From: Myxococcales bacterium
Lineage (GTDB): Bacteria; Myxococcota_A; Polyangia; GCA-2747355
Length of the DNA: 64,000 nt
Direction: 5' to 3'
Assembly: GCA_020431405.1 (NCBI GenBank)
Contig: JAGQIK010000362.1
Span: 9,858-73,857 of the forward strand
Positions within the stretch are counted from its first letter, which is position 1; each line of letters starts with the position of its first letter. Below are positions 4,595-47,307 of the stretch, in pieces. Made by a program: the position numbers and the translations under genes. The notes below the pieces were generated by a model. The model ran no database searches. It saw nothing but the letters and a program-made list of their open reading frames with translations, and had not been told where the DNA came from.

Positions 4595-6649
<2,055 letters not shown>

Positions 6650-17965: not shown

Positions 17966-17993
17966 TCTGAAGAAGAGGATTGCGATGTGCGCG

Positions 17994-18362: not shown

Positions 18363-18389
18363 TAGGCTAGTGTGTTGCGATGTACGCGT

Positions 18390-18424
18390 GGCCGGCCTGC
18401 GTAGCGCAGGCCGGTCTTTTTTTG
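18390..18424 (+). terminator. Rho-independent terminator after peptide copy 2.
   Basis: GGCCGGCCTGCG-tag-CGCAGGCCGG (perfect 10-bp stem) followed by TTTTTTT. Confidence 0.6.
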
Positions 18425-18589
18425 CCAAGTGTCAAGAAAACTGTTGATCAACTTACGAGACGTTGGCACGATGATCATACGCGTACAATTGAGACTGTGG
18501 CGATGTGCCGAAAGGGACGACGCTTGACAGCATTTCGATCGCTACGGCAGCACCAACTGCTATGCGTACGAATTGCGGGAGTAACAGAA

Positions 18590-18733
18590 ATGTCGAAGAA
18601 GACGAAGAAGACGAAGAAGAAGGTCAGCCTCAAGGTCAAAGAGCTCGACAACCTTCGCTCACCGGCTGCGATCGCGAAAGCGAAAGCAGGCATGAGACGT
18701 AGTCGGGTCGGCGCCTGGAGCACCAGCTGGTAA
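18590..18733 (+). CDS. Small Lys-rich peptide, copy 3 (47 aa): MSKKTKKTKKKVSLKVKELDNLRSPAAIAKAKAGMRRSRVGAWSTSW.
   Basis: Internal ATG of the track ORF 18380..18733. Conserved termini. Terminator follows. Confidence 0.5.
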   Translation: MSKKTKKTKKKVSLKVKELDNLRSPAAIAKAKAGMRRSRVGAWSTSW

Positions 18734-18758
18734 GTTAGCGCCAGCTGAGTGTACGCGT

Positions 18759-18798
18759 GGCCGGTCTGCGAAAGCAGGCCGGCCATTTCTTTTTTCAC
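18759..18798 (+). terminator. Rho-independent terminator after peptide copy 3.
   Basis: GGCCGGTCTGCG-aaa-GCAGGCCGGCC followed by ATTTCTTTTTT. Confidence 0.5.
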
Positions 18799-18831
18799 GC
18801 CTCTTCTTTTCTCACGGAGCTTGCTTCGCGT

Positions 18832-19899: not shown

Positions 19900-19903
19900 G
19901 CTA

Positions 19904-21069: not shown

Positions 21070-22605
21070 TTGGTCTCTACACGCAACCTGGCTCGACGGC
21101 AGCTGGAGTTGTTGGAACATAGCGGAAATGCACGATACGAAGCTCCGCGCGAGGAAATAAGACGAATGGTCGATTTCAGGTCAAGCGATCCACGATGGCA
21201 CGAGTTGGCCAAGCACTTCTCTCGGTCGCAGGAGCAGCGCTACCACTTACTTGCTGGACTTCCGGTCGACGCGCAGGTGCGCGCCGTGTCTCTCGCGATG
21301 GTGCGTCGATTGGCCGAGGAGCTGCTCGAGTCTGAAAGCGAACCGCTGGCCCGCGGCACGCTGATCGCATTTCGTCAGTTCGACTATCTCGCTTCGGCAG
21401 AGCGCGACGTCTACGAGTGCCAGAGACGCATCGTTCTCGAGGACTCCGACAGCTCGCGCATCACGCCGCAGGGCATGCAGCCGCGTCTGTACCGCGAGAA
21501 GAGTGCGGCGCGCAGGCAACAGATCGCGCAATGGTGGGCCGATCAGAGCGAACAGGTCGCTGAAGCCGCCACGCGCCGGCGATCGGCGCTCTGGGAGATG
21601 GCGCAGGAGCTCGGTCTCGACCCACTCTCCGACTTTCTCACGACCGAGGCGCTCGACCTCGAGACGATCCGCCACACGATCGAGAGCATCGCCCTTCGTT
21701 GCGGCAGCCTGTTTCAGTCGACCTTCGATGCGCTTCGAGAGCGCGAGTATGGCCAAGAGCTCGCCGAGCCATGGGTCGATCTGTGGGCGTTGTTCTTGCC
21801 AACGGCGCCGCTCCCGACGTCGCTCTCTCCAAGCGAGACGTTTCGCCGACTGGCTGATGGAATGGGATTCGCGACGTCTTCGATCTCGATCGACGAGGAG
21901 GCGCGACCGGAGAAAGCACCCATTCCAACCGTCGTGCCTGTTGGCCCTGGCGACATCCGCGTCGCGTTTCAGCCGTTGGGGGCGCTCGCCGATCTGCGGG
22001 CGCTCTTGCACGAGTGTGGGCACGCGCTCCACTACAGCTGCATGGATCAGACGCTGCTGCCCCCCGATCGGCGTCCCTCAGCTGGCGCTGCTGAGGTTCA
22101 CTCTTACTTGCTCCAGACGCTGTTGCTCCAACGCGATTTTCTGGAGGGATTTCTCCAGTGCCCCACCTCGGCAGTCGACGACGCGCTCACCGTGGAGCGC
22201 TTTTTCAACGTCCGCATGCTGGTGCACTTCAGTGCTGCGGCGTTGACCACCATCGAGTTCTGGACGCGTGGACCACTGTCTCAACAGGTGTTGGAAGAGA
22301 CCTACGCCGAGCACTTGAGTCGCTTCACAAACATCGAGTTTCCAGCTCTGACGGCGCGCACACCTTACCCCGCCCATAGTCAGCACGCCTTCACAGCCAA
22401 CGTACACTCGCTAGGCTATCCGCTTGGATATGCGCGGGTCGGGTGGCTTCTCGAGCAGCTCGAGCTGGCTGACGCACCGTGGTGGGGCAATGCAGATGCT
22501 GTGCAGTCGATCGTCACGCCGCACATGCGCACGGGGCGGAACACGACCTTCCCGTTGGAAGCCCTCTCCGTCGACCGCTGGGCTGAACGTCTGAGCTCGG
22601 TGTAG
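21070..22605 (+). CDS. M3-like zinc metallo-oligopeptidase (PepF-like).
   Basis: LLHECGHALHY (HExGHxxH) with a Glu about 24 residues downstream (AAEVHS). 511 aa. Start is uncertain: TTG at 21070 or ATG at 21163. Confidence 0.5.
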   Translation: MVSTRNLARRQLELLEHSGNARYEAPREEIRRMVDFRSSDPRWHELAKHFSRSQEQRYHLLAGLPVDAQVRAVSLAMVRRLAEELLESESEPLARGTLIAFRQFDYLASAERDVYECQRRIVLEDSDSSRITPQGMQPRLYREKSAARRQQIAQWWADQSEQVAEAATRRRSALWEMAQELGLDPLSDFLTTEALDLETIRHTIESIALRCGSLFQSTFDALREREYGQELAEPWVDLWALFLPTAPLPTSLSPSETFRRLADGMGFATSSISIDEEARPEKAPIPTVVPVGPGDIRVAFQPLGALADLRALLHECGHALHYSCMDQTLLPPDRRPSAGAAEVHSYLLQTLLLQRDFLEGFLQCPTSAVDDALTVERFFNVRMLVHFSAAALTTIEFWTRGPLSQQVLEETYAEHLSRFTNIEFPALTARTPYPAHSQHAFTANVHSLGYPLGYARVGWLLEQLELADAPWWGNADAVQSIVTPHMRTGRNTTFPLEALSVDRWAERLSSV

Positions 22606-22623: not shown

Positions 22624-23457
22624 TTAGCCGCTGGTAGATTGATCCACCCCGGCATCCGCGCTGGGGGCGTCAGGGCCAACATCAGGCGAGGCGTCGGGGC
22701 CGACATCAGGCGAGGCGTCGAGCGCGTCGGTTCCGCCGTCAGGCGACGACGGCGCGATTCCATACAAGCCGACCGCGTCGAGGGTCACGTAGTCCGTGAG
22801 GAAGGGTCTGTTCTTGTGCCGGATCTCGGTATTGACGTGCACTATCAGCTTGTCGACGAGCTGAGTCGTTTGCGTTATCGGGATACGGAAGATGCCTGGG
22901 CAAGCGCGTGTCGGATCGTCGCCCTCCCAGACCGTGAAGGGATCTCCGCCGGCAGCTGCGACGGCCTCGACCTTGATCACTGCTCCCGGATTCTCCACCT
23001 CGACGATCTCGATGCCCGTCGCGAACACGGCCGTGCGGTACGAGAGCGTGATGGTTACCACGCCCGCACGCTGGCTGGCCGGAGCCCAAAGCTCGGGAAG
23101 AAACGAGCAAGCTAGGACATCTGGCTCGCCGACGAGCTGCTCGATGCCAAACGGGGTCTCATCCGGTGGTGCCCCCGGCACTTTGAACTCGCTGGTCCCT
23201 TCGCTGCTGGTGGCCCACTGCTTGAGGTTGGGCAGCTCGGCCATGTTGGCTCTCAGTCGTGGATCGATGGAGCAATAGCTCGTCACCCCGTGGCCGAAAG
23301 CGTGAGAGGGACAGATCAGGTTCTGGCTCTTGTCGCAGTCGTCATCAGTCTTGCAGCGCGCTCCGAGGCTGCCGTCGCCGATCGGCTTGCAGCCCGCGAC
23401 AGCGAGGCCGAACAGTAGACATGCCGAGAGGCTAAAATGCGTACTGTAGCGACGCAT
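22624..23457 (-). CDS. Hypothetical Cys-containing lipoprotein.
   Basis: Start taken at MRRYSTHFSLSACLLFGLAVAGC (lipobox) rather than the track start at 23670, which would overlap the upstream gene by 238 nt. Confidence 0.4.
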   Translation of the reverse strand: MRRYSTHFSLSACLLFGLAVAGCKPIGDGSLGARCKTDDDCDKSQNLICPSHAFGHGVTSYCSIDPRLRANMAELPNLKQWATSSEGTSEFKVPGAPPDETPFGIEQLVGEPDVLACSFLPELWAPASQRAGVVTITLSYRTAVFATGIEIVEVENPGAVIKVEAVAAAGGDPFTVWEGDDPTRACPGIFRIPITQTTQLVDKLIVHVNTEIRHKNRPFLTDYVTLDAVGLYGIAPSSPDGGTDALDASPDVGPDASPDVGPDAPSADAGVDQSTSG

Positions 23458-25564
23458 GAAAAGATCGTCCCTGCGCGGGAATCGAGGCTCCCTGAACGCG
23501 ATAGATAGTACTGGCGTTGAGATCTTCGGTGCGATTGTCGAGCAGATTATACCCGCCGACTTGCAGGCGCCAATAACGCCAGGAGAGGGTAACGACCGCG
23601 GTGAGCTCGATCGCCGGCGGAAGAGCAAAAGAAGCGATCTCGTCATTGCCTGCGCCAGCAGTCCCAGCACGGATCGAGACAGGGTAGACGATAAAGCGAT
23701 CGTCGAAGATGCTCATTCGGTTGCGCACCACGAGGCTCATCCACGTCAGGGGCTTCCACATCGCACCCAGCGTGAAGTTTGTTGGCGGTCCAAGGGTCGC
23801 GAAAGGCAAGGACGTTTCATCGGCCCGGTCGTGAGAGAACATGCCAAACAGGGTAATCCGTGGCTTCAAGCGCAGGCGAAAGGTGCCCTGGAAGGAGTGG
23901 ATCGTGTATGCCTCATCCAGCTGAATCGATTGCGTTTGGTAGCTGCTGCCCGTGACCTGGACTTTGCCGAGGACGTTTTCGAGCCGGATGTACGAGTAGC
24001 CCGCCGAAAGCGACAACGACCGCACGAACCGGTCCCCGAACGCGCGTCGGAGGACCAACTGCGTCGAAAGGACGCGGCTGTGCTCGACCGACGGGTCCTC
24101 TAGCCGTCGAAGGAAGCTGGTCGCGGCGCGAGTCGCCGAAAGAAACGGCGGACGCATTCCCTCGTCGTAGTTGACCTTGAGGTGCAATCCTTCGGCGAGC
24201 TTCGCGACCAGCGCTCCCTTGGGGAGGATCGTGGGCTGGTAGTACTGCTCCGAGGCGGCGTTGAGGCGCGCGCCTGCCGACACGATAATGCGACTCCCGA
24301 TACGGAGCTCGTCGAAGACGTAGACTGAACCGATGAGAATGTTCGCCCCGTCTGTGTAGGGAATGGGGGTGGGCGTGCCCGTAGCAGGCGCCGTAAGCGT
24401 CGTGTCGGACGCAGCAACGAGCAGGCCCTCGACGCCTACGGTCAGTTGGTTGTTTGGAAAGATCTTGCTGGAGAACGTGTCGTTTCTCCGGTACTCGCCG
24501 ATCAGGTCGAGGGTCTGGTAGCTACCCAGGATCACGCCTTCATCGACGAAGCGAGATGGCGTTCCACCGCCGAGGCGTCCCGCATACGAGAAGGGTGTGT
24601 AGCGGTACGACGCCTTGAGCAGCAAGCTGCTGGACTGCGTCAGCTCCGGCGTGTAGCTCAGGTGGACCATTTGAAACGGCTGCGACCAGCGCGTGGCGCG
24701 CCCGTCTATCAGTGGCTGCCCCTGACCGGTGAACGTCTTACGATCCACCTCGACCATCAGCCGGCCATACAGCTCCAGATCGTAGGCTCGCGCTCGAAGC
24801 GACAGCGAAGCAAACGAGTCACTGCGGTTGAGCGTTAGCCGGTCTTGAGTATCGAACTGGGGGACCACGTTGAGAACGACTGTTGGCTGGTAGATCAGCA
24901 GGTCACCGCCGCGCCGCAGCGTCAGCGAGGCGTGTCCGTAGACTGACAAGGGGCCATAGGTGCCACCGTGCGACACCGAGTACTTCTGAAGGCCAAATGA
25001 GCCCAGGCGCACACGCGCCTTTGTACCCTTGTTTCGCTGGCCATCCTTCGTGACGATGTTGACGACGCCGAGCCAGGCGTTGGCACCCCAGAGCACGCCT
25101 CCAGGGCTCGCAAAAATCTCAATGCGGTTCACGACGTCGAGGTCGAGCTGATACTCGATCGGCGTGCTGGCCTGAAACAGATTGTTGATCGGCGTACCGT
25201 TGATCATGATCAACGCCGCGGCGGGCACGCCGCGGGTACGCGCGTTGTCGTGCTCTACGAAATACGCGTAGGTGTAGCCGAAGCCGGGCGTGTTGCGCAG
25301 AACGTCAGCGACGGTGCGGTATCCCAGCGTGACGAGCTCATCCGCCGTGATGACGGTGACGATCGCCGGTACATCATCGACGCTGGCCGCTTGCGGGGTG
25401 GACTGTAGGATCAGGGAGGCGATTTCGTCTTCGCGGGGCCCACTACGCGTCTTGTTGGCCTCCGACTCGACGGTGGCGGGCGGCTTCGCGAGCGCGGTAG
25501 GCAGCAGCAACCCAGTTGCGAGGATTGCTGCCGACCACCGTGCCAGAAGCCTTAGAGGCAGCAC
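23432..25564 (-). CDS. TonB-dependent outer-membrane receptor-like protein.
   Basis: Signal peptide. Plug-domain-like TVITADELVTLGYRTVADVLRNTPGF. 710-aa beta-barrel length. C-terminal aromatic residue (…LQYAF). Confidence 0.5.
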   Translation of the reverse strand: MLPLRLLARWSAAILATGLLLPTALAKPPATVESEANKTRSGPREDEIASLILQSTPQAASVDDVPAIVTVITADELVTLGYRTVADVLRNTPGFGYTYAYFVEHDNARTRGVPAAALIMINGTPINNLFQASTPIEYQLDLDVVNRIEIFASPGGVLWGANAWLGVVNIVTKDGQRNKGTKARVRLGSFGLQKYSVSHGGTYGPLSVYGHASLTLRRGGDLLIYQPTVVLNVVPQFDTQDRLTLNRSDSFASLSLRARAYDLELYGRLMVEVDRKTFTGQGQPLIDGRATRWSQPFQMVHLSYTPELTQSSSLLLKASYRYTPFSYAGRLGGGTPSRFVDEGVILGSYQTLDLIGEYRRNDTFSSKIFPNNQLTVGVEGLLVAASDTTLTAPATGTPTPIPYTDGANILIGSVYVFDELRIGSRIIVSAGARLNAASEQYYQPTILPKGALVAKLAEGLHLKVNYDEGMRPPFLSATRAATSFLRRLEDPSVEHSRVLSTQLVLRRAFGDRFVRSLSLSAGYSYIRLENVLGKVQVTGSSYQTQSIQLDEAYTIHSFQGTFRLRLKPRITLFGMFSHDRADETSLPFATLGPPTNFTLGAMWKPLTWMSLVVRNRMSIFDDRFIVYPVSIRAGTAGAGNDEIASFALPPAIELTAVVTLSWRYWRLQVGGYNLLDNRTEDLNASTIYRVQGASIPAQGRSFHASLQYAF

Positions 25565-25567
25565 TGA

Positions 25568-26215
25568 TTAACCGCCTGAGCCTGCGTCCATGCCACCGTC
25601 ACCCGTCGAGGGCGGCGGGCGGCCGATAAGAATATCGGGGACGGTCGCGGTTCCACCGGCCGTCACAGTGACTTCTTTGAGGCCAGCGTTGGGTCCGGCT
25701 GGCGGAATGCTCAGGTCGTTGGCGCCCGGCGGAGGCGTTGGCGGAGGAGTCTCCTCCATCCACGCGCCGACGTACACTTTCACGCCGGAGGGAACACCGG
25801 TGACGGTGAACGCGACTGCGGAGGCCGCGGTGCTGAGGTCGGCATTGGGGACGTCGATGGTCGCCACGGTCTGCGACAGCGGCGGAGAGCTATTGGCATC
25901 CTGAACGAAGATGCGGATCGTGCCCTTGCAGTCTGTGTCCGCCGTCGTGCCGCACACGAGGTTCGGCGTGGGTTTGACCATACCGGTGAGGGTGCCTGTT
26001 GCGGCGGCTTCGCCGACGGCATCCGGGGCGGTGTCTGGCGAAGCATCGGGCGCGACGTCGGGAGTGGCGTCTGGAGGCGCAGCTTCTTTCGCCGCGTCCT
26101 TGCCCATGTCGGTGCCCGCTTCTGGCTTCGCCGGGTCGTCGTCGCTGCATGCGCCCACGACAAGCAGCAAGCTGAGGGCAGCTAGACAGGTTACAGCATG
26201 ACGTAAGATTCTCAC
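25568..26215 (-). CDS. Pro/Ala-rich lipoprotein (hypothetical).
   Basis: Lipobox LLVVGAC. PDATPDVAPDASPDTAPD repeats. Confidence 0.4.
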   Translation of the reverse strand: MRILRHAVTCLAALSLLLVVGACSDDDPAKPEAGTDMGKDAAKEAAPPDATPDVAPDASPDTAPDAVGEAAATGTLTGMVKPTPNLVCGTTADTDCKGTIRIFVQDANSSPPLSQTVATIDVPNADLSTAASAVAFTVTGVPSGVKVYVGAWMEETPPPTPPPGANDLSIPPAGPNAGLKEVTVTAGGTATVPDILIGRPPPSTGDGGMDAGSGG

Positions 26216-26253: not shown

Positions 26254-27042
26254 TCATTGCGTCTTACAGCTGGTGCCGTTGGGACAGCAGAGGTGGTAGT
26301 CGTAGCCGAGGCCGCTGATGAAGTTGAAGCACTCGAAGCCTGCGTCGCAGGGCGTCGTGTTGGCGCCGCCGGGATAGGTATCGCACGGGGCGCGGCACAC
26401 GCCGGTCCCCTGACCGCCGTCGGGCACGCAGCGGTGGGGGTATTCGCAGAGCTCGTCTGGGTCGTTGATGTTAAAGACGGCACATGCTTCGCCCAGCTTC
26501 TTGGGTCCAGTAAATGTGCAGGACTTCCCGCCGCTGGCCGGTGAACAGTAGCTGCCTGGCGGGCAGTTGCTGGCGTCGGTGCTCGTGCAATCGATGTTCT
26601 TGAAGCAGCCGGCGGAGAGCAGGTTGGGCGTAGGCAGCTTGATCTGAGTTCCGGCGCAGTCGCCGCCCTTGGTTGGCGACGGGACGCAGGTCTTGATGCA
26701 CGTGAAAATGAACTCGGTCGCTTCGAAGCAGACCTCGGTCGGCCCACAATCCGCGTCCGTGTTACAGCGCTTGCGGGGCACTGTGTGGAACGGCATCGGA
26801 GGCTCCCAGGTGTTGTCGAAGTAGCCGGTCTTCTCGAACTCCGCGCACGTCAGGGGCGTGAACACGTACGCGTCGGGCCGTGGCCCGTCGACGTCTGAGC
26901 CCACGTCCTTGGGCGGCGGTAGGTCGGGACGTAGGATGTCCAAAGCGGTGTCGCCGCGCAGCGGCGCCGCGCGTTTGTCACGATCGCAACCAGCGGCCAT
27001 GCTGATCACGACCGAGAGGAGCAGAATGCGGGACGCAACCAT
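26254..27042 (-). CDS. Cys-rich secreted lipoprotein (hypothetical).
   Basis: Lipobox ISMAAGC. About 28 Cys in 262 aa. Confidence 0.45.
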   Translation of the reverse strand: MVASRILLLSVVISMAAGCDRDKRAAPLRGDTALDILRPDLPPPKDVGSDVDGPRPDAYVFTPLTCAEFEKTGYFDNTWEPPMPFHTVPRKRCNTDADCGPTEVCFEATEFIFTCIKTCVPSPTKGGDCAGTQIKLPTPNLLSAGCFKNIDCTSTDASNCPPGSYCSPASGGKSCTFTGPKKLGEACAVFNINDPDELCEYPHRCVPDGGQGTGVCRAPCDTYPGGANTTPCDAGFECFNFISGLGYDYHLCCPNGTSCKTQ

Positions 27043-27152
27043 GGCGTAAATACTCTCAAAGTTGGGGCAAGCCTGTCAACAATTTGGGGTCTGCGGTGCG
27101 TGCTCGAGCAAGTTGACCGGCGTGCTTTTCGTAAGTCGTGGTACGAACGCGT

Positions 27153-28694
27153 TCAGTAGCTTAACAGCAGGTAGCCCTTCTCCTCGAACCAGCCAAGCTC
27201 GCCCATCTCGAGCTCGTACAGGTACTCGTTGCCGGTCATGTTGCGCTCGACGTTGCGTCGCATGTCCGGCACCAGATCGCGCGCGAGGTAGCGCAGCTGG
27301 TAGAAGCGCTTGACCATGTCAGCGGGCGTGCTGTTCGTGTTGATGTGGGTGAGGTATTCGCGCGGCTTCGCGGCGAACTCCTCCTCGGTGACATATCGCT
27401 TGCTCAGCTGGCTCCAGCGCTGCCAGCCCTCGAGCGTATTCACAAGCACGTCGATGTCGTAGGCGCTCGGGTCGTCCGCAAACTTCGTACCAGGCGTCAC
27501 CATCAGATTCTCGATCCAGTAGATCTGACCGCCGAGCGCGACGACCTCGCGCATGGCTTCGTACGTCTCGCGAAACTCGCTGGCCGTCTCGCCAGGAAGG
27601 TTCGCGATCCAAGCCGTCAGCACCATGCCGCCCATGTCGCTGATCAGTCGCACGGCGTCCAAGATCTGCTCGCGCGACGAGCCGCGTCCAGTTCGCTTGA
27701 GCACCGACTTGGAGGCGCTCTCGCAACCCATCGTGAAGCGGACGAAGCCTCCATCGACCAGATTGCGTACGAGCTCGGGTCGCTTGAACAACACCGGGTG
27801 CGTCTCGAGGCGCACCGTGATGTCGAGGCCTGATGCGGCGAGCGCTTCGGCGAGCTGGCCGACGTAGCGCGGGTAGACGAACTCGCTCTCGCCGAGGAAG
27901 ATCTCTTTGAAGCCCAGTTTCTCGTAGGTGCGGATCTGCTCGATGACCCTGTCTACCGAGACGGTAGAGAGAGGTCGACGAAAGAACGACTGCCGATTGG
28001 CGACGCAGTAGCCGCATTGAAAAGGACAGAGCCCTCGCGCGATGTTGATGAACGCGCCGTAGCCCCACGTCACGTCGTCGAACGGTGGCGCGTCGGCGTT
28101 AACGATGGGCAGCTCCTCCATCGGCACGAGCGATCCGTCAGCCGGTTCGATGTAGCGTGTTCCCTGCGGGGTGCGGTGCCAGGCGCCCGCGACGGTCGTG
28201 TGGTCCTTGCCCGCGAGGGCAGCGCGGGTCAGCTCGAGCGCGGGCACCTCGCCCTCGCCCTGCACGAGCCCGTTGAGCGACGGATAGGTGGCGAGGAACT
28301 TCTCGGCGAAGCACGCACCGAAGATCCCGCCCAGATAGATCAGCGAGTCTGGATGTAGCCGGCGGTACCGCTCGGCGATCTGCGGAGCGCCGTTGCTATA
28401 GAGGTGCCAGTGCGCTTGGATGCCGACCCACGCAGCGGGATGGGCGGCGAGAATCGCGTCCAGGTCCCACTCGAGGTCGTTGTCCTCGACGAACAGGCGC
28501 TCCGAGTCCATGTGCAGCAGCTTCACGCGCAGGCCGTTGTCGTGAAGAAACTGCGCGATCGACAGCATCCCTATCGGTGCGTTCGACTCGAGGGTGAGGC
28601 CCGAGTCTCGAGGTGTTCCATCGGCCTCGTAACCGTGATGGGGTGCGATGAGCAGAGCGTCGTACTCGCCGCCGCGTCCATGAAATGCGACCAC
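27153..28694 (-). CDS. B12-binding (class B) radical SAM enzyme, a putative C-methyltransferase or similar maturase.
   Basis: CPFQCGYC (CxxxCxxC). A …FTMGCESASKSVLKR… radical SAM core. A Rossmann-like N-terminal domain (LTVVAFHGRGGEYDALLIAP…). Start taken as the GTG at 28694, which is preceded by AAGGA. The track ORF extends to 28898, overlapping the YcaO gene. Confidence 0.65.
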   Translation of the reverse strand: MVAFHGRGGEYDALLIAPHHGYEADGTPRDSGLTLESNAPIGMLSIAQFLHDNGLRVKLLHMDSERLFVEDNDLEWDLDAILAAHPAAWVGIQAHWHLYSNGAPQIAERYRRLHPDSLIYLGGIFGACFAEKFLATYPSLNGLVQGEGEVPALELTRAALAGKDHTTVAGAWHRTPQGTRYIEPADGSLVPMEELPIVNADAPPFDDVTWGYGAFINIARGLCPFQCGYCVANRQSFFRRPLSTVSVDRVIEQIRTYEKLGFKEIFLGESEFVYPRYVGQLAEALAASGLDITVRLETHPVLFKRPELVRNLVDGGFVRFTMGCESASKSVLKRTGRGSSREQILDAVRLISDMGGMVLTAWIANLPGETASEFRETYEAMREVVALGGQIYWIENLMVTPGTKFADDPSAYDIDVLVNTLEGWQRWSQLSKRYVTEEEFAAKPREYLTHINTNSTPADMVKRFYQLRYLARDLVPDMRRNVERNMTGNEYLYELEMGELGWFEEKGYLLLSY

Positions 28695-28717
28695 CGTCAG
28701 TCCTTTTGATTCGTCAT

Positions 28718-30850
28718 CTACACGACGGGGGGAGGTAACCAACCCCTGCTCGGCAGCGACGCAACGCCGTGACGCCACAGTCGGGACCGTCCAAGGCGTG
28801 GCGTGCCGAAGTGCAGTGGTAGAAGTCCCGGTACCAACGCCCGCACGACGCGCAGTGACGTGTTGTGCGAAATGTCGGTCGTCGTGATGTCGACCCACTT
28901 CACAGTATGCCCGTGGTCAGCGAGGAAGGCCACGAGTTCGTCCAAGGTGAGCGTACGCGAGCGGCGCGATGAAAAAGCTCCACCTGCTCCACGACCAAAC
29001 CAATCCGCGGTGGAGTGGTGGCCGGGTGTCGCGTAGAGCTTGAGCACTTCCGCCGGCCGTGTCGGATGCTCCATGAGCGGCACCTCGTCGAGAATGCCCG
29101 CGGTAAACAGCCTGCCTACGCTTTCGAGCTCGTCGAGCACATGCTCGATGGCTCCCTCCACATCAGCGCGTGCCGCAGAGGCCAGCCAGCATGCTGGTCC
29201 CGCTGGTGAGTCGATCGGCACGAAGACGAGCGCTCCGAGCACCGTCACGACATCGAGCTGCGTGGTCAAGTCGAGCAGGCGCACGTCCGCGTTCAGCGAC
29301 TGTTCCAGCTGTCGCAGCCGTTGCAGCGCGCCGCCTGGTAACGTTTCGGCGACGATGGTCGGCGGAGCTTTGCCCCGAAGCCACCAGTACAATATGGCGT
29401 CGCGTTCGAGGAGCTCGAGGACAGCGTTTTGGATGGCCGCAGCGAGACGCGTGTGGGCGGCAACGCCGCTGCTCGTGTTGAGCACCATCGGTCTCTCGTG
29501 CCATGGCACTAAGCGCACGAAGTCGTGCGGTACGAGCTGCGCCCCGTCATCGGTCAAGTCGAAACACCAGTTCCAGTCGTAGCCTCGAAGCGGGTCGAAC
29601 GGCTGAGCCAGCAGTTGGGCGCCGTACTGAGATTGGTGATAGAGGGTCAGCTCATCGGGGTCGATGGCTTGCCCTGCCAGTGATTTTTGCGTGTGTGCAC
29701 GCACCGCCGGTGGGACGGAGAACATGCAGTAGCGCTCGACCGCTTCGGCCGCCGCCAGCAACGAGGCGCGCGCCGCGGGAGTGGCGTCGTTCGAGCTCAC
29801 CAGCGGGCCCTGCCAGGTGTTGACTTCGATGTGGTAGCCACTCGCGTCACGCACCGCGGCGTTGAAGATGCCGAGAGCAGGGGCGACCAGCCGCTCGACT
29901 TGACGCTGAACCGAGCGTGGGGGCGCTGCGGGGTCAGTGGGTGTGGCGTACGCGCGAAGTTGTCGTTGGGGCGAAGGCGGGGTCAGCTGATCTGCTCCAC
30001 GGCAAGCGGTGCATAGCGGATGTGAGATCAGGCTGGACACTGATCGCGCGCCATCGATCAGTCGTGTCACTGTCACACGGTCGCCCGGTTGCGCTGAGCA
30101 CGCCCATTGGAGCGTTGCTTCGGCGACGACAAGGCTCGCCATCATCGCCGCTGGTGTGGGGAGCTGTGGCTGTTGCAGCTCCTGGCACAACCCCCAGCGG
30201 AACCATCCCGTCCGAAGCGCGAGACATTCGAAGCAGGTGGGCGTCTTGTCCGTGACGAGCGGACCGACCCATACCTCGCTTCCGACGACGGCGGCAAACA
30301 GCACGCGGGCACGTCCCTGACGCGCCGCGCGGTTTAGCACCAACATCTTTTCGAGCACGGCGGTGTCAGGCGTGGCGAGGATCGCGAGGACCCGTCGCCC
30401 GAGCTTGGTCGAGGTCAGCGAAGCGGTGGCGATTTCCATCGACCCTCGCAACGCCTCCGCGACGCTCTGCGCGATGCGCTCGTCGTCTGCCGCGATGTGC
30501 ACCGTGCCACTGGTCGACCGCGATCTAGTGTCCGGAACCAGATGCCAGTAGGGCGCGGGGCGCTTGACGAGCTGAGCCGAGCCATCGACGGGCAACAACA
30601 CACCCAGCTCGGCGAGCTCCTCCAAGAAGGCTGAGACTTCGTCCGCTGGCAGACCGACACGGCGCGCCGCCACGTCCGCGTTGACCGGCCGTCGCGTGGC
30701 CTGCAGGACGCTCCATAGCGTCTGCACCTGCTGTGCGTCGTCGACGACCATCTCGCGTCCAGGCAGCGCGATCAGCAATTGATTGCCGCTGTGCTCGACA
30801 CATGGCCGCAGCGATACGCGAACGTCGCCTGCCAATCGATAGGTTTGCAT
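28718..30850 (-). CDS. Fused E1-like (leader-peptide-binding) / YcaO-domain protein, PatD/TruD-type cyclodehydratase-like.
   Basis: N-terminal RRE/E1-like region with a CFEC motif. C-terminal YcaO signature SSGVAAHTRLAAAIQNAVLELLERDAILYWW. About 710 aa from the ATG at 30850, which lies 17 nt after the upstream stop. Confidence 0.65.
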   Translation of the reverse strand: MQTYRLAGDVRVSLRPCVEHSGNQLLIALPGREMVVDDAQQVQTLWSVLQATRRPVNADVAARRVGLPADEVSAFLEELAELGVLLPVDGSAQLVKRPAPYWHLVPDTRSRSTSGTVHIAADDERIAQSVAEALRGSMEIATASLTSTKLGRRVLAILATPDTAVLEKMLVLNRAARQGRARVLFAAVVGSEVWVGPLVTDKTPTCFECLALRTGWFRWGLCQELQQPQLPTPAAMMASLVVAEATLQWACSAQPGDRVTVTRLIDGARSVSSLISHPLCTACRGADQLTPPSPQRQLRAYATPTDPAAPPRSVQRQVERLVAPALGIFNAAVRDASGYHIEVNTWQGPLVSSNDATPAARASLLAAAEAVERYCMFSVPPAVRAHTQKSLAGQAIDPDELTLYHQSQYGAQLLAQPFDPLRGYDWNWCFDLTDDGAQLVPHDFVRLVPWHERPMVLNTSSGVAAHTRLAAAIQNAVLELLERDAILYWWLRGKAPPTIVAETLPGGALQRLRQLEQSLNADVRLLDLTTQLDVVTVLGALVFVPIDSPAGPACWLASAARADVEGAIEHVLDELESVGRLFTAGILDEVPLMEHPTRPAEVLKLYATPGHHSTADWFGRGAGGAFSSRRSRTLTLDELVAFLADHGHTVKWVDITTTDISHNTSLRVVRALVPGLLPLHFGTPRLGRSRLWRHGVASLPSRGWLPPPVV

Positions 30851-30867
30851 CGAGCAGCTACGAAGCG

Positions 30868-33447
30868 TTAGCTCAGCATCCGTGCGAGCAGCTCCTCGCA
30901 GCCTGTGACCTCGTGCCCCTCGTTGCCCATGAACTCGTCGACCTGCGACACGGAATAGCCTCGCTGCCGCATCTCGCAATACTGCGCGAGCTCTGGCGAG
31001 ATCTCGAACACGCGTAGGGTCAGCGCGGCGCGCATGCAGTACTGGTCGCCGCTGCGCCAGACAGAGTACGGATTGCTGGTGTTGATGGGTTCGGCTGGCG
31101 GACCGCACTGCTCTACCGCGTCGTCGAACGTCAATCCGGCGTTCGCGACGAAGGGAATAGAGATCTCGAAGTTGTCGGTTGGCGCGCCGTCCTGCATGTG
31201 ACGATGAAGGTCGATGTAGATCTCGTGGCCGGTGTGGAACGCTTCTACGACCATGCTGCGCGTTGCCCGACGCCGTTGCAGGTCACAAAACTGCTCCTCG
31301 GAAAGCGGCGCCGTACACAGGCAGCGCGAGCATCGCTCGAATGCGACGCACGACTCGCAGCCTCTGCGTGCGGTCGTCTCGTTCAGGATCCGCTCGAACG
31401 CCTGCCCTACGGCGTCCATGCTCGGCGTGGTGGCATCGACCAGACCGCAGCCGCTCATGCATGGCGAGAAGCGCCCGCTGTCGTCAGAAAGGGCGACGAC
31501 AAACCCTTGCGTCGAAGGGCAGGGCTCGGCCGCCCAGCGGCAGCTGTCCAAGAACAAGAACCACGATTCTGTCAGCCAGCCAGGCATTCTGAGGTAGCCG
31601 GTACGAGCCGCGCGCGCGTTGAGTCGATCAAATGCCTCGAGGTCGTGCTCGTTGGCGACATCCAACAGCCATATGCAGTAGCGGTTGGAGCTGCGTGGCA
31701 GCGTCGCGGGCGGCTCGTCGACAAGCTCGCCATCGCCGTTTTCGATGAGCCTGATGCTGATCGTGGGGCTGTCACAGACCGCGTTGAGCGGGTCCTCCTT
31801 GCCGCGTGGCGCCGGAGTCTCGCTCGAGCGAGGCTTGCCGCCGAGGACCGTGACGTGCAGCGGGCTTGCTTCGAGCCAGTGCTCGTACGTGCTCAGTGGC
31901 TGTTCGGCGAAGCGGAACATCGGCGCAGTCGCGGGGGCGATGTCCATCAACGGTGTCGGATTGGTGACGGAGGCAACGGCCGGCATCATCAGCGTGTCGA
32001 GGTCGAGCGTGGGAGCGTGCAGTAGCGTTCGAACGCCAGGGATGATCAGTCCAACCATAGGAGCCGGATCCCATCGGTTCTCTATGACCTCCCAGACGTC
32101 ACCGATGTCGTATTCGGCGTCATGGATCTGCAGCAGGCTCTTCTCGAGACGCGGCAGGTATTCGTCTCGCCGCTGGTCGAACAGGAGGAGCCCTGGCACT
32201 AGGGCCAGCAGATTCTGGTTGGTGTCGTCTGCGCCGATCGATTTGGCGAAGCGCACCGTTTCGCGAAACTCGTCTGCGCTTTGGTCGGGAATGCCAAACA
32301 TCATTCCGCAGCCAGTATGAAACCCGATCTCGTTTGCTGTCGTCACGACGCTGCGAAGGCGCTCGAGGTAGCCTTCTTCGCGCTTGTACTCGCCGTCGAT
32401 ACCTCTCTTGTGCACGACCTTGCCGAGACGACGTAGCGTTTCGGGCCCCGACGACTCGAGACCGAACGTCACCATGCGGAAGCCGGCATCAAAGAGGTGC
32501 TGCAGCATCTCGCCATTGATGCTCTCGGCTCGCGTCTCGAAGCCGAAGTGGAGCGCGAACTGTTCGGCAGCCATTCGGTCGAGCAGCTCGTCGAGCTTGC
32601 TCTTTGGTCGAGCGGTGAAGAGCAGGTCCATCAAGAACATGATCTTCAGCTCGTGAAGGCCGGTGGTCTTGTCGATTCCCCGGAAGAGGCCGTGGTCTGC
32701 TTCGCCGCGCTTGTCAGCCGCGACGAACACGTCGTTGATGTGGCTGAGATCGTCGATGACCCGGTCGGTGGAGAAGTAGCGCATGCTCGCGACGTAGTTT
32801 CTGCAGTGGCAGAACCCGCACTTGTACGCGCAGCCGATGGAGGTCGTGTAGTAGTACGGATGGTGTCCATCATCTGCGCCGTACTTCCAAGGCGGTGGGA
32901 TGATGTCGAGCTCGGCAAATCGCTCGCACGCTGGCCACGGCTCCGCTGGCGTCTCGACGTATTCGGCCCCCTTGGGCTCGGTTCGAAATACTAAGCTGCC
33001 GACGCGGTCGAGCAGCCCACGCTTGGCGTCGGCGCGTTCGAATAGCGCAAGCACGGACCAGTAGGGGTCGTAGCGAACGCAGGCGTCGAGCGGCGGGTTG
33101 TTGTCGAGGAACCAGGCAGGTTCGTGGGTCGCGTAGTCGCCCGACGCGATCTGCAGGATGTCCGGGCGACGCTCTCGCAACCCAGCGCCGAGCCATTTCA
33201 TCAGAAAATACAGCTGGGTTCCGGATGGTTGCCGGGGCGATTCGACGAAGAAGTGAACCACCTTGAGGTTGCGGTTCTCGCACAGCTCGTCGAGCAGCGC
33301 CCGTCTCGACTGGTGCAGCGACAGCACGACGCAGCCGGCTGTCCGGATCCCGCGGCTTTCGAGGATGCTTCGGCAGAAGCTCGCCTCGCGCAGACTGGCC
33401 GCGACGGTGCCGGCCCCGTCAGTAACTGCGAGGTATGTGCATGTCAT
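30868..33447 (-). CDS. B12-binding radical SAM enzyme with a C-terminal Cys-rich extension of about 350 aa.
   Basis: SIGCAYKCGFCHC (CxxxCxxC). An …FGLESSGPETLRRLGK… core. C-terminal CESCVAFERCSRCLC cluster (SPASM/twitch-like). Start is uncertain: ATG at 33447 or GTG at 33483. Confidence 0.65.
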   Translation of the reverse strand: MTCTYLAVTDGAGTVAASLREASFCRSILESRGIRTAGCVVLSLHQSRRALLDELCENRNLKVVHFFVESPRQPSGTQLYFLMKWLGAGLRERRPDILQIASGDYATHEPAWFLDNNPPLDACVRYDPYWSVLALFERADAKRGLLDRVGSLVFRTEPKGAEYVETPAEPWPACERFAELDIIPPPWKYGADDGHHPYYYTTSIGCAYKCGFCHCRNYVASMRYFSTDRVIDDLSHINDVFVAADKRGEADHGLFRGIDKTTGLHELKIMFLMDLLFTARPKSKLDELLDRMAAEQFALHFGFETRAESINGEMLQHLFDAGFRMVTFGLESSGPETLRRLGKVVHKRGIDGEYKREEGYLERLRSVVTTANEIGFHTGCGMMFGIPDQSADEFRETVRFAKSIGADDTNQNLLALVPGLLLFDQRRDEYLPRLEKSLLQIHDAEYDIGDVWEVIENRWDPAPMVGLIIPGVRTLLHAPTLDLDTLMMPAVASVTNPTPLMDIAPATAPMFRFAEQPLSTYEHWLEASPLHVTVLGGKPRSSETPAPRGKEDPLNAVCDSPTISIRLIENGDGELVDEPPATLPRSSNRYCIWLLDVANEHDLEAFDRLNARAARTGYLRMPGWLTESWFLFLDSCRWAAEPCPSTQGFVVALSDDSGRFSPCMSGCGLVDATTPSMDAVGQAFERILNETTARRGCESCVAFERCSRCLCTAPLSEEQFCDLQRRRATRSMVVEAFHTGHEIYIDLHRHMQDGAPTDNFEISIPFVANAGLTFDDAVEQCGPPAEPINTSNPYSVWRSGDQYCMRAALTLRVFEISPELAQYCEMRQRGYSVSQVDEFMGNEGHEVTGCEELLARMLS

Positions 33448-33507
33448 GGGGAATACAATACGACATCCCGCAGTAAGATCCACGCGCAGTGTGCGTCACA
33501 GAAAAAA

Positions 33508-33545
33508 AAAGGCCGCGGCAGTGTGCCGCGGCCTTTTCTTCTTTA
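33508..33545. terminator. Strong bidirectional rho-independent terminator.
   Basis: AAAAAAAAA-GGCCGCGGCA-gtg-TGCCGCGGCC-TTTTCTTCTTT. Perfect 10-bp GC stem flanked by an A-run and a T-run. Confidence 0.65.
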
Positions 33546-33562
33546 GCGGAGCCTAGCGGAGC

Positions 33563-35366: not shown

Positions 35367-37160
35367 TCACTTCGTAATCACGATGATTACCACGCGACGA
35401 TTGAGCCGACGGTTGGCGTCGCTGGTGTTGGGCTTGAGCGGACGCGTCGCGCCATAGCCAACGGCCTGAAGCTGCTTGGCGGGGACACCCTGCTTGATCA
35501 GGAAGGCCCGTACGGAAGCCGCGCGTTTGGCGGACAGCCGATAGTTGGTTCGGCGTCGCCCCGACGAGTCCGAGTGGCCCTCGATGCGCAGCAGCGGCTT
35601 GCCCGGATGCGCCTTGATCCGAGCGGCGACCTGCTTGAGGCTCGTCTTGGCCGCGGCGTCGAGCGTGGTCTTGCCCTGATCGAAGTAGTAAATCTCTGGA
35701 ATTGCTAGCGCCTTGACCTGGGGCTTGGGCGGCGTGTCCGGGCAACCGTCAGCATCCTTGTAGCCGTTTACCGTCTCTGGCTCGTTAGGGCACTTGTCGA
35801 CCGAGTCAGCGATGCCGTCGCCATCATTGTCATTGTCCGGGCAGCCATCCTCGTCCTGGAAGCCGTCCTTGTCCTCGGGCTCGGTCGGGCACTTATCGAC
35901 GTTGTCGTTGATGCCATCGCCATCGGTGTCCGAGACCTTCGCCGGGCAACCGTCGGGGGTCTTCGCGTACACGAGCGGGCACTTGTCCTGCTTGTCGGGG
36001 ACGCCGTCGTTGTCGTTGTCAGGATCTGGGCAGCCGTCGTCATCGAGGAACCCATCGCGGTCCTCGGCCTGGGACGGACACTTGTCTACGCTGTCATCGA
36101 TCCCATCGCCATCGGAGTCTTTGAGCGCCTTGGCGCCCACTGCGAAGTCGTAGGTCAGCCCAGCGAATGCGCGTGCTCGTCCAGCGCCGTAGCCGCGCAC
36201 CAGACCAGCACCACCGCCGGCGACCAGACCGAAGTTCTCGGTGGCACGCCAGCGCACGGCGGCGAGCGCCTCGAGGGGGGTCTCACGGGTGCGGCCGTTG
36301 AACGCGAGCAGCGTCGCACCCCAGACCTCGGCGACGATCGTCAGCGATGGCAGCACGCGATAGTCCATGCCCAAGCCGAACAGGAACTCGTTGCCGATCT
36401 TGAGCTCGTCGTCGTCGGGCAGGAACACGAACGAACGTTGGAATCTTGCTCCCAGGTTCGCTGCCACGCGGAACGGGCCAGAGACGAAATCGACCATCAG
36501 GCGCGGAGCGACCGTCACCGCGATCGAGTTGTCTGCGATGTATCGGGTGCTCTCGCCAAAATCATCGGGGGTGTTGTTGTAGCCGCGGAACGGCCCGCCG
36601 CTGTCGATCGGCAACGTCAGGTCCACGCCGACCGCGAGCCCCAGCCCGCCACTGCGGTTCCTCAGAATCGTCCCCTTGAGGGACAGGATCATGTCGTTGA
36701 AGCCGCCACCGTAGAGATCGCTGGCCATGCCGATCTCGCTGTCGGAGCGACAATCACGGTTGGGCGCCCTCAGATTGTCCTCCTTGGGCGGCGGATTATC
36801 GGCCTTCCCGCACACTTCCGTGATCGTGTAGGGGAACGCGACCCCGATCTGCAGTCGGTCGAACAGACCGAACGAAATACCGACAGAGTGGGCGACGAGG
36901 GCCTGCACCCAGCTCTTCTTCGATTCGTTCTTGCCGAACAGACGCAGCGGGCTCTCGGCGTACGTGGCGTAGTACGAGATCGAGAAGCTGAGGTGCTTGT
37001 TGGGGACGGAGGGCTCGACCGTGATGAAGCGGCCCGCGCCCATCGCTTGCGAGAAGCGCTGGATATTGAAGAGACGATCGCGGGAGCTAATCTCCTGCGC
37101 CGAGGCCTCGGACGAGAAAAGCAAAGCCGCGACGAGGCACCAGACGGGCGGCTTAAGCAT
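35367..37160 (-). CDS. OmpA-family outer-membrane protein with TSP3 repeats. It is a paralogue of 4595..6649.
   Basis: Signal peptide. DSDGDGIDDSVDKCP-type TSP3 repeats. C-terminal OmpA domain (…GHSDSSGRRRTNYRLSAKRAASV…). Confidence 0.7.
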   Translation of the reverse strand: MLKPPVWCLVAALLFSSEASAQEISSRDRLFNIQRFSQAMGAGRFITVEPSVPNKHLSFSISYYATYAESPLRLFGKNESKKSWVQALVAHSVGISFGLFDRLQIGVAFPYTITEVCGKADNPPPKEDNLRAPNRDCRSDSEIGMASDLYGGGFNDMILSLKGTILRNRSGGLGLAVGVDLTLPIDSGGPFRGYNNTPDDFGESTRYIADNSIAVTVAPRLMVDFVSGPFRVAANLGARFQRSFVFLPDDDELKIGNEFLFGLGMDYRVLPSLTIVAEVWGATLLAFNGRTRETPLEALAAVRWRATENFGLVAGGGAGLVRGYGAGRARAFAGLTYDFAVGAKALKDSDGDGIDDSVDKCPSQAEDRDGFLDDDGCPDPDNDNDGVPDKQDKCPLVYAKTPDGCPAKVSDTDGDGINDNVDKCPTEPEDKDGFQDEDGCPDNDNDGDGIADSVDKCPNEPETVNGYKDADGCPDTPPKPQVKALAIPEIYYFDQGKTTLDAAAKTSLKQVAARIKAHPGKPLLRIEGHSDSSGRRRTNYRLSAKRAASVRAFLIKQGVPAKQLQAVGYGATRPLKPNTSDANRRLNRRVVIIVITK

Positions 37161-37213
37161 CGCCCCATGATACAGCTGCGGCACCGTGTGTCAAACAAAC
37201 ACGCAGCATTGCA

Positions 37214-37576: not shown

Positions 37577-37662
37577 GGGTCGCTGAGAGAACAGACGCTC
37601 GCGAGTACGATGGGGTACATTCCACCGCTCGCGCTGCGTTTTTGCAGCCTCGAGGAGGCAAC

Positions 37663-38670
37663 ATGGCGATAGTACCACAGTCCGATTCGCGCGCGCCGCT
37701 GGTCGCCGACATCATCGCGACGCTCTCAGCGGCCGCGAAGATGTCGCGAGCTCTGCAACAGGGGGTGGAGCGTTTGCGCGTCGCCCTCAAGGATGACCGC
37801 AGCCCGGTGACTGTCGCCGACCTCGCGGTGCAGGGACTCGTCGCAGCGCGACTCGCATCGAGCGAGGTGCCGATCGTCGGCGAAGAGCGCGCCGACCTCT
37901 TGCGTCGCGCTGAAGCCTCCGCGCTCACCGACGCTGTCGTCGACGCAGTCTCCGGTCCGGGAGGCTTGCCGATCGCACGTGCCGAGCTGCTCGAGGCGAT
38001 CGACTCGGCCTGCCACGATGGCAGTGCCGAGCGCTACTGGACGCTCGATCCCATCGACGGCACGAAGGGTTTCCTGCGTGGCCAGCACTACGCCATCGCT
38101 CTCGCGCTGATCGAGGGAGGCGAGGTCACCCTGGGAGCGCTGTGCTGTCCCAATCTCGGCGTCGACCCCAACGTCGTCGACTCGGCCGGGACGTTGTATG
38201 TCGCCCTGGCGGGCGCTGGTGCTTGGCAGCTGCCGGGCGGGGACGTCGAGCGTGCGGTACGGATCAAAGCCCGCTCGATCGCTTCGGGTGACGCGCTGCA
38301 GGTTTGCGAGTCGGTAGAGTCGGCACACTCGAAGCATGCCGACGCCGCTCGTATTGTGGCTCACGTGCCATTCGTCGCTGGCGAGCCAGTGCGCATGGAT
38401 AGCCAGTGCAAGTACGCGCTCGTCGCGCGTGGGGATGCCCACGCGTACCTACGCCTCCCCACGCGCGCAGACTACCGCGAGAAGATCTGGGATCACGCGG
38501 CGGGTTTGATCGTGGCTCGGGAGGCCGACGCAGTCGTCACCGACGTGCATGGGAAGGCGCTCGATTTCCGACATGGTCGGACACTCGAACAAAATCGCGG
38601 CGTGATCTGCGCCAGTCGCGGTGCGCATCAGCCCTTGGTTGATGCCTGCCAGCAGTTGGGCATTGGGTGA
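37663..38670 (+). CDS. 3'(2'),5'-bisphosphate nucleotidase (PAP phosphatase), CysQ/HAL2 / inositol monophosphatase family.
   Basis: WTLDPIDGTKGF metal-binding motif. About 335 aa. GAGGAGG Shine-Dalgarno before the ATG at 37663. Confidence 0.55.
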   Translation: MAIVPQSDSRAPLVADIIATLSAAAKMSRALQQGVERLRVALKDDRSPVTVADLAVQGLVAARLASSEVPIVGEERADLLRRAEASALTDAVVDAVSGPGGLPIARAELLEAIDSACHDGSAERYWTLDPIDGTKGFLRGQHYAIALALIEGGEVTLGALCCPNLGVDPNVVDSAGTLYVALAGAGAWQLPGGDVERAVRIKARSIASGDALQVCESVESAHSKHADAARIVAHVPFVAGEPVRMDSQCKYALVARGDAHAYLRLPTRADYREKIWDHAAGLIVAREADAVVTDVHGKALDFRHGRTLEQNRGVICASRGAHQPLVDACQQLGIG

Positions 38671-38713: not shown

Positions 38714-39301
38714 ATGAGACGGATGCCATGGATGTCGCGGCAGACCGCCAGCGCCATAGTTTTCATGGCGTTGGCGTGCCCGTTGTGGGGCTGTGCCTAT
38801 TTCTTCGACGCGGACGCGACCACGCGCGAGTTTCGGCGGGCGTTGCGTCTGCAGCGGCGCGGCCACGACGAAGCGGCCCTCGTTGCCTACGGCGCGCTCG
38901 CGCCGCGCGCTCGCCGGCTCGAAGGCGCGCTCAACAACATGGCCCTGATCTTCGCACGCCGTGGCGACGTCGCTCGGGCCGAGCAGTTGCTGAGGCTCGG
39001 TACGCGTGTTGGCGCTAACAACTGCACCGTTTGGCTGAATCTGGGCCTCGTGCTCGCCACGCGCGGTCAGGTGCGCGAGGCGCGCTGGGCTTGGCAGCAG
39101 GTGCGCGCCGCGCGCGATCGTCTGCTCGACAGCGCGCCAGCGTCGCGCCATCAGATCTACACGTCGTCGATCATGCGGCGCAGCCATGCCGCGATCGCGC
39201 GCGCCGAACGCTATCTCAGGGGCACGCGCGCGAGCACGAGGCCGCGACGCGAGTCCTACGCGCTCGTCTTGCTAACGGCCCAGACTTCGACCTCGCAGTA
39301 G
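38714..39301 (+). CDS. TPR-like lipoprotein (hypothetical).
   Basis: Signal plus lipobox (FMALACPLWGCA). TPR-like helices. Confidence 0.35.
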   Translation: MRRMPWMSRQTASAIVFMALACPLWGCAYFFDADATTREFRRALRLQRRGHDEAALVAYGALAPRARRLEGALNNMALIFARRGDVARAEQLLRLGTRVGANNCTVWLNLGLVLATRGQVREARWAWQQVRAARDRLLDSAPASRHQIYTSSIMRRSHAAIARAERYLRGTRASTRPRRESYALVLLTAQTSTSQ

Positions 39302-47289: not shown

Positions 47290-47307
47290 GTATGGCGAAA
47301 CAAAGCG

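Follow-up and report, generated by a model that had tools for sequence, protein, structure and literature searches.

We describe a 64,000 bp stretch of DNA (the window) from a 90,101 bp contig of a Myxococcales metagenome-assembled genome (MAG), high in GC (~0.58-0.70), in which three adjoining minus-strand genes at 27153-33483 very probably form a maturation operon for a peptide that is ribosomally synthesised and then modified post-translationally (RiPP). The operon encodes a fused YcaO protein flanked by two radical S-adenosylmethionine (rSAM) proteins (which we refer to as rSAM-A and rSAM-B), and three tandem peptide genes at 17840-18733 on the plus strand have about an even chance of being its substrates. 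RiPP clusters that combine a YcaO with radical SAM enzymes are already known, and this one belongs among them, but it is a singleton, and both its set of enzymes and its precursor are unusual. A first-pass annotation of the same DNA had read RiPP-type enzymology from the three genes, which holds in the form of a leader-dependent PatD/LynD-like heterocyclase accompanied by one or more class-B radical SAM enzymes.

The operon consists of three open reading frames (ORFs) in succession on the minus strand (27153..28898, 28718..31108 and 30868..33483), all long and intact, with domain matches far above chance and, in both rSAM genes, a GC content at third codon positions (GC3) of 0.79-0.80, which is of coding type. 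rSAM-A (30868-33447, 859 aa) most likely starts at an ATG, its ORF reaching a GTG at 33483, the fused heterocyclase, with a RiPP recognition element (RRE)/E1-like part and a YcaO part (28718-30850, 710 aa), starts at an ATG, and rSAM-B (27153-28694, 513 aa) starts at a GTG six bases past AAAGGA. With these best starts the junctions, read directly, leave 17 nt between rSAM-A and the YcaO gene and 23 nt between the YcaO gene and rSAM-B, in agreement with the tight packing and gaps given by the first-pass annotation. A strong intrinsic terminator (33507..33537, minus strand), with a 14-bp stem of which nine pairs are G-C and a T-run on both strands, ends an upstream lipoprotein gene and separates it from the operon. 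The flanking gap 27043-27152 and the coding strand of 33448-33562 hold no ORF of at least 20 aa, in line with the earlier remark that neither the operon nor its short flanks contain a precursor.

The 710-aa protein is a three-domain heterocyclase, composed of a leader-binding winged helix, an E1-like domain and a YcaO domain. Residues 360-676 match PF02624 in Pfam (1.3e-44, 153.3 bits against a cutoff of 25.7), residues 183-328 match the leader-peptide-binding/E1-like domain TIGR03882 in NCBIfam (38.6 bits against a cutoff of 36.9), and the source annotation calls it a YcaO-like family protein. Alignment with 23 fused relatives shows that E369/E372/R373 (ExxER) and E479/E482/R483/D484 (ELLERD) are invariant, the ATP/Mg motifs also align with TruD and MusD, and none of the YcaO ATP-binding residues is lost. 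The top PDB sequence matches are TruD, MusD and LynD (4bs9, 7u58 and 4v1t; E 4e-14 to 3e-11). An AlphaFold2 (AF2) model built on the relatives' alignment (pLDDT 73.5, pTM 0.78) shows strands and then three helices at residues 10-82, where a winged-helix match covers residues 44-79, followed by the E1-like and YcaO domains. Foldseek matched LynD, TruD and MusD to this model end to end (E 3e-36 to 2e-29, TM 0.57-0.68) at 17-18% structure-based identity, whilst stand-alone YcaOs matched just its C-terminal half. The RRE/E1-like N-terminal half and YcaO C-terminal half proposed earlier are thus borne out by PF02624, TIGR03882, the ELLERD motif and the full-length fold match, and given that match to LynD, TruD and MusD, 'PatD-like' was a fair name for the architecture.

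The two radical SAM proteins are not alike. rSAM-B is clearly a class-B (cobalamin-domain) radical SAM protein and probably a methyltransferase: it carries a B12-binding domain (PF02310, 40.8 bits against a Pfam cutoff of 32.1) and a radical SAM domain (PF04055, 7e-24, 85.3 bits) with the motif CPFQCGYC (CxxxCxxC), its class-B matches in NCBIfam are all sub-threshold, and it reaches no specific family cutoff there. rSAM-A has the radical SAM domain (PF04055, 5.8e-11) with CAYKCGFC at residues 206-213, weak NCBIfam matches to the class-B families PhpK, HpnJ, ApyD and BchE, and, searched with fragments included at E<=10 in Pfam and NCBIfam, no match to the B12-binding domain PF02310. A local profile made from five class-B enzymes aligns its residues 90-239 and 267-421 (E 3e-21), where SGDYAT and YDPY stand in place of the usual GGxHAT and GEGE. 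Its sequence therefore appears related to class B with a divergent N-terminal region, and given the missing B12 profile match and the altered class-B segments, cobalamin binding by rSAM-A is unproven; the earlier view that both rSAM proteins bind B12 stands for rSAM-B and lapses for rSAM-A.

The first rSAM had also been described as about 860 aa long with a C-terminal CxxCx5CxxCxC cluster, and this is accurate, since residues 697-711 of the 859-aa protein read CESCVAFERCSRCLC in that pattern. The cluster lies in a Cys-rich patch with ten Cys in residues 636-721, and the protein also has a C-terminal tail of ~140 aa. Fragments of rSAM-A gave no SPASM or PqqD profile match in Pfam or NCBIfam at E<=10, and its resemblance to SPASM proteins is one of motifs only. 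The AF2 model of rSAM-A is unusable (pLDDT 35.7), and a Rossmann-like pattern at the N-terminus and a winged-helix-like pattern at the C-terminus may be taken as hints only.

The first-pass annotation had allowed that a full-length protein might be the target, and such an arrangement is known from the maturation of methyl-coenzyme M reductase (MCR), in which a YcaO-TfuA pair introduces a thioamide and B12-dependent rSAM enzymes add methyls; there too a YcaO works with class-B rSAMs on a substrate which is not encoded beside them. The empty operon fits such a reading, as do a weak match of rSAM-B to the MCR glutamine C-methyltransferase family (1e-12, 47 bits) and one of the YcaO protein to the McrA thioamidation equivalog TIGR03266 (1.7e-9, 37.2 bits), but these scores fall far below the family cutoffs of 360 and 365. 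The YcaOs of MCR maturation are moreover stand-alone proteins with no RRE/E1 fusion and work with TfuA, whereas the window protein includes a leader-binding RRE/E1-like module of its own, has its nearest fold matches in LynD, TruD and MusD rather than in stand-alone archaeal YcaOs, and lies in a neighbourhood where the genes scanned include no TfuA and the neighbour proteins are secreted lipoproteins. We regard modification of a full-length protein as highly improbable.

To look for a peptide substrate we listed all ORFs of at least 20 aa between the genes of the whole window, a small-ORF search of the kind the first-pass annotation had called for, and in a 1.2-kb gap at 17613-18831 it disclosed three tandem plus-strand genes with products of 41-49 aa, which that annotation had overlooked and which fall outside the coordinates it gave. 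Gene 1 (17840-17965; MAKKTKKTKKKVSLKVKELENVRTPLKARQRSRVGAWSTSW) has an AAGGA ribosome-binding site and is preceded by a sigma-70-like site at 17704-17733; the hairpin and T-run downstream of it were read by eye and are absent from the terminator scan list. Gene 2 (18213-18362; MSKKTKKTKKKVSLKVKELDNLRAPAPMLKARASKAINRSRVGAWSTSW) and gene 3 (18590-18733; MSKKTKKTKKKVSLKVKELDNLRSPAAIAKAKAGMRRSRVGAWSTSW) are followed by GC-rich terminators at 18390-18416 and 18757-18786 respectively, and the MAG annotation lists each of the two as a hypothetical protein. The genes repeat every 373-377 bp, each with a purine-rich ribosome-binding site. Upstream of genes 2 and 3 lies a repeated 53-nt element (18056-18108 and 18434-18486) holding TGGCAA-N5-TCGT or TGGCAC-N5-TCAT, which has a partial likeness to a sigma-54 -24/-12 promoter. 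A GCGCGTGG string that the surroundings of the peptide terminators share with the region upstream of rSAM-A was dismissed as too short to carry meaning. The intergenic gaps across the window yielded no other precursor-like ORF.

All three peptides share a Lys-rich leader (KKKVSLKVKELDNLR), a linker of variable length and an invariant C-terminus, RSRVGAWSTSW. In this 11-codon core the copies differ at 2-5 codons, every change being synonymous (including a Ser TCG/AGT switch) and none non-synonymous, and in the 25-codon leader they differ synonymously at 6-8 codons and non-synonymously at 1-4. Such a pattern, with synonymous changes only in the core and a conserved leader, is typical of genes that are translated and keep both parts: the peptide genes are real and under purifying selection. 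With an invariant aromatic/hydroxyl C-terminus behind a linker that varies, the peptides are arranged as a leader/core precursor would be. The candidate core lacks Cys and contains Ser-Thr-Ser (WSTSW). Compared with the NCBIfam precursor families the three peptides gave nothing at E<=10, neither a nitrile hydratase-like leader peptide (NHLP)/proteusin leader nor a Nif11-like one. The earlier suggestion of a distant precursor has therefore gained a concrete candidate in the same block of genes, whilst the pairing of that candidate with the operon is positional only.

Relatives of these proteins are distant. For the YcaO protein, a word-indexed search across 5.8 billion proteins gave nothing beyond the query; for rSAM-A it gave the query and one protein at 26% identity, and for a profile of the peptides only the same MAG. 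An exhaustive HMMER search of 1.84 billion representatives gave 3,699 YcaO relatives at E<=0.001, of which only two non-self proteins beat 1e-30 (the nearest at 1e-33; 29-37% identity); identities among the matches listed were 27-40%, and the nearest relatives are metagenomic and carry generic names only. Scanning metagenomes for the leader word produced 600 pattern matches and no relative of the peptides, and a scan for the core pattern, which used WSN codes that also admit Trp, Cys and Thr, produced six chance matches, none with WSTSW or a Lys-rich leader.

Species-representative genomes, scanned with the family alignment, yielded 80 YcaO loci against which all window proteins were compared by tblastn. 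A homologue of rSAM-A, of the sulfotransferases described below or of the peptides was found in none of the 80, so the proposed neighbourhood check for a co-conserved small ORF returned none. An rSAM-B-like neighbour was present in only four loci, which belong to another, Cys-rich thiazole/oxazole-modified microcin (TOMM) family, and the rSAM proteins of such loci (among them L016, L020 and L038) are 21-24% identical to rSAM-B. For example, the locus in an Archangiaceae MAG (L016, 5639-10771) has the order precursor, B12-rSAM, ThiF/E1, YcaO and nitroreductase; here and in two further loci (L020, 6832-7203; L038, 6765-7136) a 123-134 aa precursor ending CCCC(T/S)CCPCC(S/T)CTASVV lies directly upstream of the B12-rSAM gene, and in the fourth (L048) another Cys-rich precursor takes the same place upstream of the rSAM gene. 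The TOMM family of the first three loci spans the Archangiaceae MAG, an uncultured bacterium and Tateyamaria. That all four loci with an adjoining B12-rSAM and YcaO carry a precursor upstream of the rSAM fits peptide substrates; with the precursor adjacent in every case, adjacency is the rule there, and the window operon differs from it.

Between the candidate precursors and the operon no gene has an evident housekeeping function. The 17.8-33.5 kb block is contiguous and each of its genes is of a kind found in peptide natural-product clusters, a positional argument only; transketolase is the left neighbour of the peptide genes. Two tandem 3'-phosphoadenosine-5'-phosphosulfate (PAPS)-type sulfotransferases (18832-20983, minus strand; 355 and 359 aa; PF00685 at ~5e-21 each) adjoin the peptide genes and are transcribed towards them; they are paralogous, 52% identical, and match cytosolic SULT-type enzymes in the PDB. 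Next comes a 511-aa HExxH metallopeptidase (21070-22605, plus strand), weakly M3-like (TIGR02289, 5e-4 over the HExxH), with HECGH at residue 314 and no PDB relative, which is possibly a leader peptidase. The remaining four genes of the block, all on the minus strand, encode a secreted protein (22624-about 23670), a TonB-dependent receptor (23432-25564; plug domain PF07715 at 2.8e-14 and TonB receptor families), a lipoprotein (25568-26215) and, immediately downstream of rSAM-B, a Cys-rich lipoprotein of 262 aa with no family match (26254-27042). These four may be co-transcribed with the operon, and they may belong to the same system. A terminator scan of the minus strand from 33447 to 22624 gave no intergenic site, its sole hit being a weak one inside rSAM-B, and in the 110-nt gap between rSAM-B and the Cys-rich lipoprotein gene we read by eye a TTGACA and a -10-like GAGTAT, which would give the lipoprotein gene a promoter of its own. 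No cobalamin riboswitch was detected by Rfam before the TonB receptor gene or the operon at the gathering threshold, nor were tRNAs.

We considered whether a compositional island marks the cluster boundary and rejected it: GC3 of predicted genes is ~0.88-0.93 to the left of 15.5 kb and ~0.72-0.85 to the right, a fall which persists to the end of the window and so sets no limits to the cluster. A gene of the inositol-monophosphatase family (37642-38670, plus strand) lies 17 kb from the sulfotransferases; going by that family it is possibly a CysQ-like phosphatase of 3'-phosphoadenosine-5'-phosphate (PAP), in which case it and the sulfotransferases could represent a pairing of PAPS use with PAP removal, or a coincidence.

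A second group of peptide-related genes occupies 39-50 kb. A 703-aa protein (39256-41367, minus strand), without a match in Pfam or NCBIfam, is a second RRE/E1-like protein according to the relatives' alignment profile (residues 63-390, E 5e-17) and matches the E1 region of the YcaO protein by BLASTP (4e-5). Its C-terminal half looks from the sequence like a degenerate YcaO domain, with ExxER and ExxERD gone and only DLIAIDLTTPD matching at the equivalent position. A divergent FAD oxidase gene adjoins it. Further along, all on the minus strand, Pfam identifies an HlyD adaptor (43074-44945), an M16 peptidase (44938-47289, also recognised by its HFLEH motif) and an 868-aa fusion of a PqqD (RRE) domain, an HExxH (HEFGH) intramembrane protease and HlyD (47308-49914), whose best NCBIfam match is the daptide-type intramembrane metalloprotease NF041824 (1.7e-33, below cutoff). 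From their size the 43-50 kb genes had appeared to be a second copy of the operon, which their identity as HlyD, M16 and PqqD-protease genes rules out. The 43074-49914 operon would serve peptide processing and export and might be linked to the YcaO operon; that the 39-50 kb module may process or export the same peptides is speculation. No small ORF lies beside this module in the intergenic ORF listing.

The degenerate YcaO paralogue raises the question of whether the operon itself is decaying or inactive and the small ORFs encode unmodified basic peptides (for example nucleic-acid-binding or membrane-active ones), a view with which the singleton status in all databases, the degenerate class-B motifs of rSAM-A and the extremely basic peptides would agree. 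Set against it are the long intact ORFs of all three enzymes, the coding-type GC3 of the two rSAM genes, the intact radical SAM Cys triads and YcaO ATP/Mg motifs, and a peptide C-terminus held by purifying selection behind a variable linker in a leader/core layout, and we consider decay very unlikely.

Several observations weigh against matching these three peptides to these enzymes, or against the chemistry we propose for them. The peptide genes lie 8.4 kb from the operon on the opposite strand, a positional pairing, and their leaders, Lys-rich with a net charge of +12 to +13, are atypical for RiPPs. The YcaO protein scores 166 bits against the SagD family TIGR03604 (1e-48), under its cutoff of 219.25, and ends in LPPPVV where its relatives have PHCFP, with only P706 common to both; a PxPxP-type C-terminal end is associated with azoline-forming YcaOs (PMC12338566). 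In the database searches no other genome carried the YcaO protein, rSAM-A or the peptides. The genes closest to the peptides are those of the sulfotransferases and the peptidase, which could with them form a self-contained system. The window covers 64 kb of the 90-kb contig, and another precursor could sit outside it.

The last two points lead to the possibility, which we rate as real though distinctly the weaker, that this is a RiPP operon with its precursor elsewhere (outside the window or in the remaining 26 kb of the contig), the three peptides serving only the sulfotransferases and peptidase or the PqqD-protease/M16/HlyD module. The window holds three separate RRE-bearing proteins, which means that several peptide systems may coexist, and the sulfotransferases and HExxH peptidase are the immediate neighbours of the peptide genes. 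However, these enzymes lack a recognisable leader-binding domain, the Ser-Thr-Ser core suits a heterocyclase, the window gaps contain no other precursor-like ORF, and the block runs without a break between the peptide genes and the operon.

Returning to the three peptides as substrates of the operon, we infer this pairing from position only, since neither the enzymes nor the peptides have a close homologue in billions of proteins; all the chemical steps that follow are putative, as is what the sulfotransferases, the peptidase and the 39-50 kb genes would do. The N-terminal winged-helix/E1-like module of the 710-aa protein would bind the precursor leader, and the intact YcaO domain would activate backbone amides with ATP, both of which are established chemistry of the YcaO family (PMC11583998). 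(Methyl)oxazolines would then form at Ser/Thr of the core, or the YcaO domain may give another outcome such as an amidine; oxazolines would be the simplest, as the WSTSW core has no Cys and the window no SagB-/nitroreductase-type dehydrogenase. rSAM-B would most likely C-methylate the peptide, and rSAM-A may make a cross-link, an idea suggested by its extra Cys clusters, or a further methylation. That the HExxH or the M16 peptidase removes the leader, and that the sulfotransferases carry out O-sulfation, is guesswork based on which genes are present.

Put together, and tentatively, the 17.8-33.5 kb block might make an unseen class of RiPP, an ~8-residue Trp-rich VGAWSTSW released from its Lys-rich leader, with oxazoline(s), C-methyls, a cross-link or other change and possibly O-sulfation. 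It would be made by a dehydrogenase-free leader-dependent heterocyclase, a hybrid rSAM-A with a class-B-like N-domain, SPASM-like Cys clusters and a winged-helix-like tail, a class-B rSAM-B, and two dedicated sulfotransferases, a combination which we think doubtful as a whole. If the pairing is true, it defines a new RiPP family in which a heterocyclase acts on a Cys-free Trp-rich core beside two rSAMs (one of undescribed architecture) and sulfotransferases, enzymes that RiPP pathways seldom include, with no part having a close public relative; natural-product chemists would gain from an uncultured myxobacterium a defined and testable system in which three enzymes meet three substrates. It would also mean that a missing adjacent precursor can indicate precursor genes at the opposite end of a cluster, and the case for protein modification weakens accordingly.

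Elsewhere in the window lie two paralogous outer-membrane proteins with thrombospondin type-3 repeats and an OmpA domain (4529-6649, plus strand, and 35367-37184, minus strand), and a shikimate-pathway cluster (58590-63235, plus strand) encoding dehydroquinase-shikimate dehydrogenase and 5-enolpyruvylshikimate-3-phosphate (EPSP) synthase-shikimate kinase fusions, then chorismate synthase.

Among known systems, the bottromycin pathway employs stand-alone YcaOs and a precursor with a follower peptide. The bottromycin and polytheonamide pathways use class-B rSAM enzymes for C-methylation of unactivated carbons (PMC11285071), and bottromycin and the proteusins (polytheonamide, nostatin A) combine B12-rSAM C-methylation of a ribosomal peptide with further changes to its backbone or side chains (PMC11285071; PMC11583998), the proteusins doing so behind a large nitrile-hydratase-like leader (PMC11583998). 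The window peptides differ from these in matching no NCBIfam precursor family and in their short, Lys-rich leader. The bottromycin-like or polytheonamide-like reading of the first-pass annotation is reduced to an analogy of chemistry; neither an NHLP/proteusin leader nor a follower peptide nor a stand-alone YcaO turned up.

The B12-rSAM loci of the TOMM/linear azol(in)e-containing peptide (LAP) type (L016, L020 and L038) resemble the window operon in that a class-B rSAM gene adjoins cyclodehydratase genes, and L016 is, like the window, from a myxobacterial lineage. In L016, however, E1 and YcaO are separate proteins followed by a nitroreductase-type dehydrogenase, whilst in the window they are fused; the TOMM/LAP loci also have an adjacent precursor with a CCCC(T/S)CCPCC core, whereas the window operon has neither an adjacent precursor nor a dehydrogenase and adds a second, far larger rSAM. 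With Pfam, the window genes scanned included no subtilisin protease of the PatA/PatG type and no PatE-like precursor. The closest counterparts of the 710-aa protein are PatD, TruD, LynD and MusD, which likewise join winged-helix, E1-like and YcaO parts on a single polypeptide of ~700-780 aa, with the ATP/Mg motifs kept, and from which it is set apart by a structure-based identity of 17-18%, its LPPPVV end, its radical SAM flanks and the Cys-free core of its candidate substrate.

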